Assembly (NCBI GenBank): GCA_038893995.1
Contig: JAWAQK010000015.1
Coordinates: 1 to 47,586, forward strand
Length of the DNA: 47,586 nucleotides
DNA from: Candidatus Thorarchaeota archaeon
GTDB lineage: Archaea; Asgardarchaeota; Thorarchaeia; Thorarchaeales; Thorarchaeaceae
Direction of reading: 5' to 3'
The position numbers and the translations under genes are program-made. Below, piece by piece: positions 45,847-47,586 of the stretch. A model generated the notes under the pieces. It was given only the letters and a program-made list of their open reading frames with translations, had not been told where the DNA came from and searched no databases. How positions within the stretch are numbered: the first letter of the stretch is position 1; each line of letters starts with the position of its first letter.

Positions 45847-46386
45847 ATGCACCTACTGGTGACTATCTCCGGTCCTCATGGCACTGGAAAGAGCTCTGTG
45901 GCCAGAATGCTCTCTGAGAGACTGGGACTTAGGTATGTTTCGGCGGGAGAGTTGTTCAGGCGGCTTGCTGCAGAGCGAAAGATGTCCCTCGAAGACTTCA
46001 GTAGAGTCGCGGAGCAAGACGATAAGATAGACAGAGCGCTAGACGAGGGACTACGAGAGGAGGCAGCCAGGGGGGATGCCGTAATAGATGCCCAGCTGGG
46101 GGCCTGGATGGCCGAAGGTTATGCAGACATCAACATCTTGTTGACGGCACCACTCGAGGTTCGAGTCAGACGGATAGCAATGAGAGACGGAACCGACTAC
46201 CACAGGGCATATGCTGAAACCATCTCGAGAGAGAACAGTGAGAGAGAGAGGTACCGGCGCTACTATGGAATAGACCTTCGGGACATGTCAAGATATGACC
46301 TGATCCTGAATACCGGAAAGTACGACTTGGACGCAGTAGTCGACATAGTGACGCTTGCAATCAAGAGGTATGTCAAGCCTATGTGA
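45847..46386 (+). CDS. cmk: Archaeal cytidylate kinase
   Basis: ISGPHGTGKS, SAGELFR, RY..YYGID, YDLILNT. Confidence 0.95.
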   Translation: MHLLVTISGPHGTGKSSVARMLSERLGLRYVSAGELFRRLAAERKMSLEDFSRVAEQDDKIDRALDEGLREEAARGDAVIDAQLGAWMAEGYADINILLTAPLEVRVRRIAMRDGTDYHRAYAETISRENSERERYRRYYGIDLRDMSRYDLILNTGKYDLDAVVDIVTLAIKRYVKPM

Positions 46387-46538
46387 GGTCGCTCGGTCGG
46401 CAAGTCCATGACGTCGATGTCAACGACACTGACAGGAGAGATACAAAGACACTCCTCCAACTGACTGGTACTGCATGAAAACAGTGGGTCTCGAAGTGAA
46501 TCAGAGCGGAAGGCTCTTATTGAATTCGTGGGGACTGA

Positions 46539-46622
46539 ATTTCATTCACCAGTCCATGGGGATGAATCCTCCAAGGCGACTCGGAGTTTCGTTTGACCCA
46601 TGAAAGGGTGAGGTGTACAGAA
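46539..46622 (+). ncRNA. Candidate H/ACA-like K-turn hairpin (guide RNA or cis-regulatory leader)
   Basis: Stem CATGGG/CCCATG, GAU bulge with tandem GA/GA, internal pocket, lower stem, and ACA 14 nt after the upper stem. Confidence 0.5.
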
Positions 46623-46623
46623 C

Positions 46624-46899
46624 ATGGGCGTGTTCGAAGTCGGAAGAGTCTGTGTGAAGACAATGGGCCGCGAGACAGGTTCATACTGCGTGATTGTTGA
46701 CAGGGCGGACGACAACTTTGTGACAATAACGGGACCAAAGCCTCTATCCAGCGTGCGAAGGAGAAGATGCAACATCAAGCATCTCGAGCCACTCGATATT
46801 GTAATATCGATCAGCAGCGGCGCTGACGATGACTCCGTGATGAAAGCAGTCGAACAGGCGGGTCTGACCGATAGATTCCGTACCAAGATAAGACTGTGA
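46624..46899 (+). CDS. rpl14e: 50S ribosomal protein eL14
   Basis: EVGRVCVKTMGRE.G..CVIVD, RRRCNIKHLEP. Confidence 0.96.
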   Translation: MGVFEVGRVCVKTMGRETGSYCVIVDRADDNFVTITGPKPLSSVRRRRCNIKHLEPLDIVISISSGADDDSVMKAVEQAGLTDRFRTKIRL

Positions 46900-46929: not shown

Positions 46930-47586
46930 ATGAAGGGTATCTTGCCTTCCGATAGACCTCGTGAGGTCTTGGTCAAGGCACACGACACGACTGATCCCAA
47001 GTACGGGTTCAACTCGCTGGACAACCTACCCATGGAGTATCTCCTTAACAACTCGGTGATCGTACTTGACAAGCCGCCAGGTCCAACAAGCCACGAGGTC
47101 GCTGCGTGGGTTCGTAAGATTCTTGGGGTTAGCAAAGCAGGGCATTCGGGGACGCTTGATCCTGCAGTTTCCGGGATCCTGCCAATCGGGATAGGGACTG
47201 CAACGCGGGCGATGCAGGCACTACTGCCTGCCGGGAAGGAGTACGTCTGCGTGATGGAGCTTCACTCGGCGGTTGCTGAAGATCGGATACGAGAGGTCGT
47301 TGAGGAATTCACAGGCAAGATATACCAGAGACCGCCGCTGAAGTCATCAGTAAAGCGGGTCGTCAGGGTGAGAGAGATCTACTACGACGAAGTACTGGAG
47401 ATCCAGGACAGACTTGTGCTGATGCGGATAGGTTGTGAGGCAGGCACCTATGTCCGCAAGCTGTGTTACGACATCGGGGAGGTGCTTGGAGTCGGAGCGC
47501 ATATGAAGCAACTCAGGAGAACCCGAGTCGGGATCCTGCGCGAGGATGACCACTTGTGCAAGCTTCACGACCTCAAGGATGCATAC
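46930..47586 (+). CDS. cbf5: RNA-guided pseudouridine synthase Cbf5 (partial, runs off the right edge)
   Basis: Read by hand: LDKPPGPTSHEV, GHSGTLDPAVSG, KEYVC, IYQRPP..S.VKR, CEAGTYVRKL. Confidence 0.96.
   Translation, partial: MKGILPSDRPREVLVKAHDTTDPKYGFNSLDNLPMEYLLNNSVIVLDKPPGPTSHEVAAWVRKILGVSKAGHSGTLDPAVSGILPIGIGTATRAMQALLPAGKEYVCVMELHSAVAEDRIREVVEEFTGKIYQRPPLKSSVKRVVRVREIYYDEVLEIQDRLVLMRIGCEAGTYVRKLCYDIGEVLGVGAHMKQLRRTRVGILREDDHLCKLHDLKDAY

Follow-up and report, generated by a model that had tools for sequence, protein, structure and literature searches.

The rpl14e locus and its leader

We analysed a 47,586-nucleotide (nt) stretch of DNA from a Candidatus Thorarchaeota archaeon (hereafter, the window), which is contig C15 of a 2.33-Mb assembly in 82 contigs. 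Near its 3′ end lies rpl14e, the gene of the ribosomal protein eL14, and directly in front of it we found a leader hairpin of about 75 nt, spanning positions 46543-46616. The leader is a real conserved element: its helices covary, it is present as a single copy, and it is linked to rpl14e.

The stretch is contained in four DNA runs, all of them hot-spring metagenomes, and no RNA run is listed for it. The product of rpl14e gives a weak Pfam Ribosomal_L14e match, below the cut-off, and a protein search recovered the orthologue in all 41 relatives. Another gene, cbf5, follows in the same orientation 30 nt further 3′. A first-pass annotation, made from the letters of the window, had described the stems of the hairpin, a GAU bulge, tandem GA/GA, a lower stem, the spacing of an ACA triplet and the ATG of rpl14e, and every one of these bases is in place; its naming of cbf5 as the next gene is confirmed by the Pfam domains. 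The features of the locus, with the kink-turn (K-turn) divided into a canonical (C) stem and a non-canonical (NC) arm, are as follows:

46505..46522, + strand: promoter-like block resembling a B recognition element (BRE) and TATA box, AGCGGAAGGCTCTTATTG; family members share the conserved form AGCGNAAGGCT(S)(W)TAT(T/G)
46543..46550, + strand: 5′ strand of the basal helix, complementary to the Shine-Dalgarno (SD) sequence (anti-SD; UUCACC here, UUCUCCC in most relatives); pairs with 46607-46615
46551..46554, + strand: 5′ side of the internal loop, AGUC, the "pocket" of the first-pass annotation; it has 4 nt in the window, where 36 of 37 relatives have 2 nt, and it is variable in sequence
46555..46560, + strand: 5′ strand of the middle/C stem, CAUGGG; its last two G are the conserved C-stem of the K-turn
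46561..46565, + strand: bulged strand of the K-turn, L1-L3 = GAU, then G1b and A2b; L3 is U in 37 of 37
46566..46594, + strand: NC arm, apical hairpin CUCCAAG / CUCGGAG, capped by the tetraloop GCGA (46576-46579)
46595..46596, + strand: non-bulged strand of the K-turn, G2n and A1n; the G, the A and the next C are invariant in the alignment
46597..46602, + strand: 3′ strand of the C/middle stem, CCCAUG; pairs with 46555-46560
46603..46606, + strand: AAAG, the internal loop's 3′ side; 34 of 37 relatives have 3 nt at this place
46607..46615, + strand: SD sequence GGUGAGGUG, forming the 3′ half of the basal helix; a nearly invariant GAGGUG pairs with the anti-SD
46617..46619, + strand: ACA triplet, unconserved, 14 nt (46603-46616) past the upper stem
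46624..46899, + strand: rpl14e open reading frame (ORF; eL14, 91 amino acids (aa)), the gene behind the leader
46930..47586, + strand: 5′ part of cbf5 (Pfam DKCLD, TruB_N, TruB_C_2), which leaves the window at its end

The lower stem consists here of UUCACC (46545-46550) and GGUGAG (46607-46612), and the stem segments of the NC arm are CUCC (46569-46572) and GGAG (46583-46586). Around the tip, whose GCGA tetraloop the first-pass annotation had left unnamed, lies an invariant octamer, AGGYGACU (46574-46581). On the 3′ side, an insertion UUUCGUUU (46587-46594) is able to pair instead with GAUGAA, as it does in minimum-energy folds. In roughly 30 of the 37 sequences, the TAT core of the promoter-like block precedes the start of pairing in the lower stem by about 28-31 nt. 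The block may well be an archaeal BRE/TATA promoter, with transcription starting at about 46543-46547, that is, at the base of the hairpin.

Conservation and covariation among Asgard archaea

The element is present 5′ of rpl14e in 27 of the 30 relatives' loci that we retrieved. A covariance model built on the leader alignment (R1; its calibration was short and its E-values are rough) scored the leader in the window at 65.5 bits (E 1e-15), and no other place in the 2.33-Mb genome matched at E up to 10. Of the 151 Asgard genomes sampled, 35 gave an R1 match, one in each. This positive set comprises all 26 other genomes of the Thorarchaeota-like family together with members of four further families, so that the families with the leader are f1, f2, f3, f6 and f7 in our numbering. 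In the genomes also covered by the protein search, all of the matches adjoin the start of rpl14e. Additionally, R1 matched 18 Thorarchaeota-like and three Baldr/Odin records.

The covariation counts come from a model-guided alignment of 37 sequences, which is fitted to the model and leans toward the structure, and the related genomes in it are not independent samples. Within this alignment, 13 of the 18 modelled pairs show compensatory changes, and 83.8% of cells are paired, compared with 38-53% when the partners are slid along. On the raw MAFFT alignment the corresponding values are 79% and 36-55%. RNAalifold run on that raw alignment found almost no structure, a result of indel misalignment, and the structure was entered by hand and refined via the model. 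The basal helix (helix 1 of the model) is 85.5% paired, with compensatory changes in four of its six pairs, and the apical stem covaries at five of seven. The first-pass annotation had claimed that the lower stem buries the SD of rpl14e. This holds in the predicted fold, where the SD is taken up into a basal helix that covaries.

The plan shared by the family starts from a basal helix of UUCUCCC with GG(C)GAGG, the latter being the SD. Above it come a 2 × 3 nt internal loop, a covarying stem of 3-5 base pairs (bp), a purine-rich 3 × 2 loop, a 2-bp C-stem and then the K-turn. Position -1b:-1n of the K-turn is G:C in 37/37 sequences, and the tandem G.A/A.G (GA/GA) is kept in 36/37. The bulge reads GAU in 23 sequences, AAU in 11, GGU in 2 and AGU in a single one. 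GUGA forms the tetraloop in 23 and GCGA in the other 14, and the closing pairs, AG..CU, are the same in 36 of the 37. The K-turn that the earlier annotation had pointed out is thus real and evolutionarily fixed. Two length classes can be told apart. In the short class the NC arm is an unbroken helix of 9-10 bp, and in the long class, which includes the window, the 3′ strand carries an insertion of 7-9 nt with a UCR complementary to UGA on the bulged strand. Pairing between the two gives a competing, rod-like fold.

The folding energy of the hairpin, -28.5 kcal/mol, is modestly unusual (z = -2.16; 6 of 200 shuffled sequences fold equally well). It is conservation, not folding energy, that places the leader beyond chance. 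In the minimum-energy fold GAUGAA pairs with UUCGUU in place of the K-turn. At 37 °C the SD is predicted to be unpaired with a mean probability of 0.22, which increases to 0.43-0.54 at 75-85 °C. When folding was extrapolated to 65-85 °C, the hairpin became marginal (-12.8 to -1.7 kcal/mol), with the SD 37-54% unpaired. Such marginal stability would allow a protein to tip the balance.

The kink-turn and L7Ae

Two features of the K-turn bear on how it may fold. In a published rule for ion-induced folding, a Watson-Crick 3b:3n pair blocks folding, 3b = C or 3n = G permits it, and it is favoured by C:G at -1b:-1n (PMC6298567). In the leaders, 3b:3n is G:U in 11, U:A in 8, A:U in 6 and A:A in 4, and 3n = G or 3b = C was found in 5/37. 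Since 3b:3n is mostly a Watson-Crick or wobble pair and -1b:-1n is G:C, the K-turn appears to be of the protein-dependent type. Its fixed signature and covarying flanking helices give it all that the sequence of a standard L7Ae-type K-turn requires. An L7Ae-family protein is therefore expected to be needed to fold it, judging from these sequence rules, and L7Ae is encoded in the genome of the window (G000:C2).

The mechanism has clear precedents. The l7ae mRNA carries a GAU-bulge K-turn that covers its SD and through which L7Ae represses it, and a K-turn in the nop5-fibrillarin mRNA is also bound by L7Ae (PMC5539422). The l7ae K-turns are not folded by metal ions alone; L7Ae binding folds all of them and occludes the ribosome-binding site (RBS) (PMC6298567).

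The stretch 5′ of the l7ae gene of the window's own genome (G000:C2 ~52718-52800, minus strand; locus L177) can be drawn by eye as a K-turn hairpin. As drawn, it consists of CACC, an AAU bulge, GA, UG, an 8-nt loop, CA, GA and GGU(A)G. The SD GAGGU makes up its 3′ strand, and by eye the hairpin agrees with the published l7ae autoregulatory leaders.

Occurrence outside Asgard archaea

In the Methanococci, the class that contains Methanocaldococcus, we found the architecture of the leader at 23 of 30 rpl14e loci. The plan here runs from a CCUCCC anti-SD through an internal loop, a G, a GAU or AAU bulge, GA and a 10-bp arm to GCGA; the 3′ half returns through the arm, AA, C, an internal loop and GAGGUGAGG. 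In these leaders 91% of cells are paired and four pairs show compensatory changes. The pair that closes the tip flips from C-G to G-C at 6:6, and GCGA is unchanged throughout. No cbf5 lies within 600 nt 3′ of the Methanococci rpl14e, and in the Asgard genome G025 cbf5 is convergent and the leader is still present. The element tracks rpl14e, not cbf5.

Hairpins tipped with GGCGAC/GCGA also occur 5′ of rpl14e in Methanofastidiosa, in a Hydrothermarchaeales metagenome-assembled genome (MAG) and in several DPANN MAGs, with a partly different design. They lie at positions ~520-600 of loci L090-L100 and L108 (Methanofastidiosa), L126 (Hydrothermarchaeales) and L117, L124, L128 and L132 (DPANN). Examples are CCAAAGGGCGACCGGG and GCGC-AA-CUG-GCGA-CAG-G-GCGC, and the latter resembles a hairpin of helix 98 (H98) in Thorarchaeota 23S rRNA, GCGCG-GGA-CUG-GCGA-CAG-UAA-CGCGU. 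In the same locus set, the Methanobacteria, Thermococci-like and Thermoprotei loci are without the element.

We also compared the leader with described RNA families. Rfam 15 gave no match at the gathering threshold anywhere in the window and, in 46300-46700 at E up to 10, nothing beyond chance-level matches outside the hairpin. At E up to 1 it gave none in five distant loci (Methanocaldococcus, Methanofastidiosum, Hydrothermarchaeales and Odin/Baldr). A survey of ribosomal protein (r-protein) leaders, which includes candidates for archaeal eL15, S15 and L4, has no eL14 leader (PMC7247131), and L14e is unmentioned in the paper that identified L7Ae-bound RNAs by immunoprecipitation and sequencing (PMC5539422). 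Thus, in Rfam 15 and in PMC7247131, we found no cis-regulatory RNA reported for Asgard archaea or for eL14.

Surroundings of the leader in the window

The genes 5′ of rpl14e are secY, adk, an EMC3-like gene, rpl34e and cmk. The spacer between cmk and rpl14e measures 237 nt here, compared with about 120-155 nt in relatives. The surplus of about 110 nt lies 5′ of the promoter-like block, within 46387-46504. An Rfam P8 match at 46467-46528 is weak and at chance level (E 0.34). The spacer also holds a 42-aa ORF (46475-46603). We considered it as a leader peptide and provisionally dropped this reading, as the start of the ORF precedes the predicted promoter. Two other readings of the hairpin were dropped as well: a terminator of cmk, since there is no U-tract, and a riboswitch, since the internal loops are small and variable.

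Comparison with H/ACA guide RNAs

The first-pass annotation took the hairpin either for an H/ACA guide RNA or for an H/ACA mimic through which Cbf5 and L7Ae would feed back on the eL14-cbf5 transcript. The layout in the window does resemble an archaeal H/ACA small RNA (sRNA) in its lower stem, internal loop, upper stem of 6 bp (46555-60 / 46597-602), L7Ae-type K-turn and ACA at 14 nt, and the gene directly downstream encodes the H/ACA enzyme; this fit of the layout is found in this one genome. The published descriptor of archaeal H/ACA RNAs sets the lower helix (H1) at 7 bp or more and the upper helix (H2) at 5-6 bp, allows 5-11 nt per pocket strand, and asks for a K-turn or K-loop as well as an ANA that is 14-15 nt away from the target U (PMC2377435). 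In the window, H1 has 6 bp and 2 more beyond a bulge. The "pocket" is 4 × 4 nt here and 2 × 3 nt in most relatives, which is too small for the descriptor as well as unconserved. H2 in the relatives is mostly of 2 bp, followed by a 3×2 internal loop and then 3-5 bp.

The alignment separates what is conserved from what is not: covariation and GA/GA held up, and the ACA did not. Only 3 of 37 relatives have an ACA at a distance of 13-16 nt from the upper stem, and 10 of 37 have one anywhere 3′ of it. An ANA at 13-16 nt, present in 23/37, is uninformative in the A-rich spacer. The orientation of the K-turn argues against a guide as well. A K-loop is a K-turn in which loop nucleotides take the place of stem I, and its position within H/ACA RNA is apical (PMC1865073). 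In such a K-loop the non-canonical helix would be proximal to the pocket, whereas in the leader the canonical stem is proximal, so the polarity appears to be opposite. A search for the guide's target found no YUUU-U-N-GRYU site in 23S rRNA or in the rest of the rRNA contig C36, and an extended guide-target pattern gave a single, unrelated genomic match. Unlike an H/ACA sRNA, the leader has as its 3′ strand the SD, 8 nt before a start codon, and the element persists where cbf5 is not co-transcribed (in the Methanococci and in G025). We therefore regard both forms of the H/ACA reading as extremely improbable. Of the idea that the hairpin represses its mRNA, what remains plausible is the L7Ae-type mechanism, which is well precedented (PMC5539422, PMC6298567); the Cbf5-binding mimic is not supported.

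The GYGA tip, eL14 and ribosomal RNA

On the ribosome, eL14 contacts both helix backbone and hairpin tips, namely H41 with the tip of H25, and H58 with the tip of expansion segment ES20L (PMC3553981). H25 carries a K-turn of its own, KT-25, which is bound by a second L7Ae (PMC3553981). The eukaryotic eL14 lies among ES7L, ES39L and H41 (PMC5961077). ES39 is close to eL14, and its helix Hb ends in a GNRA loop common to Asgard archaea and eukaryotes (PMC7594248).

We looked for likenesses to the leader in these regions, with rRNA helix numbers assigned by alignment to flanking conserved sequence. The distal module of H25 in the 23S rRNAs that we retrieved has the polarity of the leader: a canonical stem, a 5′ bulge GAAN, GA, a short arm, GNRA and a 3′ GA. 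In most Thorarchaeota-like genomes the H25 tip is GYGA. In the window's own 23S rRNA (G000:C36:3227-6304) the H98/ES39 region, at nt ~2915-2975, forms two short hairpins. The tip of the second, GGGACUG-GYGA-CAGUAAC, hardly varies within the family and is found again in other Asgard classes and in Methanofastidiosum. This hairpin ends in YUG-GYGA-CAR, and in Odin-like genomes and Methanofastidiosum in AG-GYGA-CU, the octamer of the leader. A motif search of the own 23S found GGYGAC hairpins at about nt 1565 and 2948. The former is small and conserved, has GCAA in other archaea, and is not obviously ES20L. In Methanocaldococcus the H25 tip equals the leader tip (C-GCGA-G); this is not followed in other genera, and we did not count it as support. 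Taken together, these likenesses are no more than suggestive of a leader that mimics the rRNA near eL14, and statistically such mimicry is not supported.

Some observations on the rRNA genes concern the 23S molecule itself. In the 1.4-Mb Odin-like genome G026 (23S L164), the distal hairpin of H25 is apparently deleted, with GAAGGAA-ACGA closed directly (automatic alignment), and the H98 hairpin has the tip AAUAG-GCGA-CUAUU. BLAST alignments of 23S from the relatives L155, L157, L158, L159 and L160 break at position 2577/2578 of the own 23S and, in several, resume about 140-790 nt later. In the 23S of G025 (L166) the alignment is interrupted at position 2052, and the gap there measures about 800 nt. 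These breaks suggest rRNA introns or insertions that are missing from the window's genome.

Proposed mechanism and alternatives

Our preferred reading, which we offer tentatively and would stop short of calling probable, is that the leader is a protein-operated OFF switch for translation of the rpl14e(-cbf5) mRNA, with eL14 as the favoured sensed protein. The transcript would start at the base of the ~75-nt hairpin, and its anti-SD (UUCNCC) would pair with the SD GAGGUG. An L7Ae-family protein would then fold the K-turn as a cofactor, displacing the competing helix in the long class, and the kink would bring the tetraloop arm of about 10 bp back alongside the SD helix. The tip lies about one helical turn from the K-turn, which we judge to be outside the footprint of L7Ae, and a second recognition site would therefore be needed. 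A second contact at the GYGA tip could lock the RBS. eL14 might recognise the GYGA tip and the helix backbone as it does on the ribosome, which would make this a case of r-protein autoregulation, and the downstream cbf5 would be included in the switch where it is co-transcribed. We favour eL14 because the link to rpl14e is all that stays constant from phylum to phylum, and because eL14 bridges a hairpin tip and a helix backbone. The leader is a structured RNA directly 5′ of the gene of its presumed ligand, across lineages and independent of operon partners. The transcription start, the protein contacts and the direction of regulation are parts of this scheme that we infer.

In its most far-reaching form, the scheme describes an ancient archaeal eL14 leader that needs two proteins, one of which (L7Ae) kinks the RNA and the other of which (eL14) clamps the tip and helix backbone as at H25/H41 (and H98) on the 50S subunit. 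We consider this form possible and, on balance, unlikely. If true, it would recreate the L7Ae-eL14 neighbourhood of helix 25 in one small RNA and would couple the synthesis of eL14 (in Asgard archaea also of Cbf5/dyskerin) to free ribosome-assembly proteins. It would also give eL14, and the Asgard archaea, their first described r-protein leader, one that the Methanococci share.

Several observations weigh against our preferred reading. The SD is paired in the K-turn form and in the rod-like alternative alike, at least in predicted folds, and any effect of protein binding on translation is thus a conjecture on our part. As for the likeness to rRNA, R1 finds nothing in the own 23S locus, and the H25 of the window's genome has a GCAA tip. 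The H25 bulge is of 4 nt (GAAC) and lacks the bulged U. Leader tip and H25 tip (the latter GCAA or C-GCGA-G) show no covariation in the Methanococci, and the H98 region is absent from Methanocaldococcus 23S. The K-turn itself departs from the standard in the Methanococci and in the Odin/Baldr versions, where position 2b:2n is A.A and not A.G. Finally, an A/T-rich, TATA-like stretch abuts the Methanococci hairpin, so that its 5′ strand might escape transcription from a local promoter. Published transcription starts of Methanocaldococcus jannaschii do not extend to the rpl14e locus (PMC2699501).

The canonical K-turn, with its GAU/AAU bulge and protein-dependent sequence type, would also be at home in an operator read by L7Ae alone. 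L7Ae would then be both sensor and effector, the GYGA loop would be no protein site, and the kinked RNA would dock this loop into the minor groove of the SD:anti-SD helix and so lock the RBS. By our own count, the two arms are alike in length, one reaching the loop after ~11-12 layers and the other the CUC/GAG step within the SD helix after ~12-14. According to Costa and Michel, GYGA loops reportedly prefer CU:AG helical receptors. Such an operator would join an existing regulon, as l7ae and nop5-fibrillarin provide precedents (PMC5539422), and it would place the Asgard Cbf5, the H/ACA enzyme, and eL14 under L7Ae control. It gives no reason, however, for the tie to rpl14e across phyla, including Methanococci with cbf5 elsewhere, and the two loop-closing pairs are invariant in Thorarchaeota beyond the needs of docking. 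We regard an L7Ae-only operator, the main rival, as rather doubtful, while giving it real weight.

Readings that dispense with a regulatory protein, or with the mRNA, fare worse. A protein-independent structure, be it an RNA thermometer or an mRNA-stabilising 5′ hairpin masking the SD, would treat the K-turn-like motif as architectural. It would agree with the sequestered SD, with a predicted stability that drops steeply between 55 and 85 °C, and with the origin of the DNA in hot-spring metagenomes. Yet it has no need of invariant G.A/A.G, a bulged U or a tetraloop with fixed closing pairs, and the same design is found in organisms of differing habitats, which makes this reading improbable. 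Still more so is a separate stable sRNA that would assemble an L7Ae ribonucleoprotein beside rpl14e, as a leader-derived sRNA or a C/D-like particle, and we rate its chances as very low. The promoter-like block does precede the hairpin, and the K-turn does resemble a box C (AUGA) / box D (GA) core. What is missing from it are guide regions and a second motif, conservation does not extend to the CU of box D or to the U.U pair, neither terminator nor U-tract separates the hairpin from the ATG 8 nt on, and the 3′ strand of the hairpin is the SD of rpl14e. Among the hallmarks of a box C/D RNA (RUGAUGA, CUGA, U.U, guides and C′/D′) we found an AUGA...GA core only, and the base after GA as well as the two bases before the 3′ GA vary among leaders.

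Significance

Very few cis-regulatory RNAs are known from archaea. The leader described here is small and sharply defined by its K-turn, GYGA tip and SD helix, and it ranges from Thorarchaeota and Odin-like genomes to Methanocaldococcus and related methanococci. If L7Ae is the ligand, the L7Ae feedback network (l7ae, nop5-fibrillarin) would gain a ribosomal protein and, in Asgard archaea, also the H/ACA pseudouridine synthase. If eL14 is the ligand, the leader would be a minimal model of RNA reading by an SH3-like protein and an example of sensing by two proteins. The occurrence in Methanococci may make the leader testable with recombinant proteins and possibly with genetics. Additionally, our analysis corrects a tempting mis-annotation, as in single genomes the hairpin looks like an H/ACA guide.

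Comparison with known K-turn operators and ribosomal protein leaders

Yeast L30 binds a K-turn in its own transcript. Among archaeal RNAs, we compared the leader with the l7ae operators of Sulfolobus acidocaldarius, Archaeoglobus fulgidus and others and with the K-turn in the nop5-fibrillarin mRNA (PMC5539422; PMC6298567). Like these, the leader has a standard GAU-type K-turn and is predicted to lie in the 5′ part of an SD-led archaeal mRNA. In both, -1b:-1n and 3b:3n predict no folding in a protein-free state, and the RBS would lie within a stem-loop stabilised by the K-turn. The leader differs in its gene, which is rpl14e and not l7ae or nop5, and in its length (~75 nt vs ~30-40). Its SD stands 13 nt from the K-turn, in a separate basal helix, whereas in the l7ae operators the SD is adjacent. 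An NC arm of about 10 bp, capped by an invariant GYGA with fixed closing pairs, is found in the leader only. Moreover, its sequence family spans classes, while the l7ae leaders are conserved in sequence within Sulfolobales only (PMC5539422).

With H25 of 23S rRNA (PMC3553981) the leader shares a K-turn-type internal loop, a bulged strand on the 5′ side and a GNRA-capped NC arm; the arm has 4 bp and non-canonical pairs in H25 and about 10 bp in the leader. Like the candidate r-protein leaders of archaeal eL15, S15 and L4 (PMC7247131), the rpl14e leader is a structured RNA directly 5′ of one r-protein gene and conserved with it across lineages, and it overlaps the RBS. Leaders of this kind need not resemble the rRNA site of their protein; in the rpl14e leader the partial likeness to rRNA hairpins near that site is limited to the GYGA tip and the general layout of a K-turn plus a tip, and a second protein, L7Ae, is probably needed. 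We class the leader with the K-turn translational operators and the r-protein leaders.

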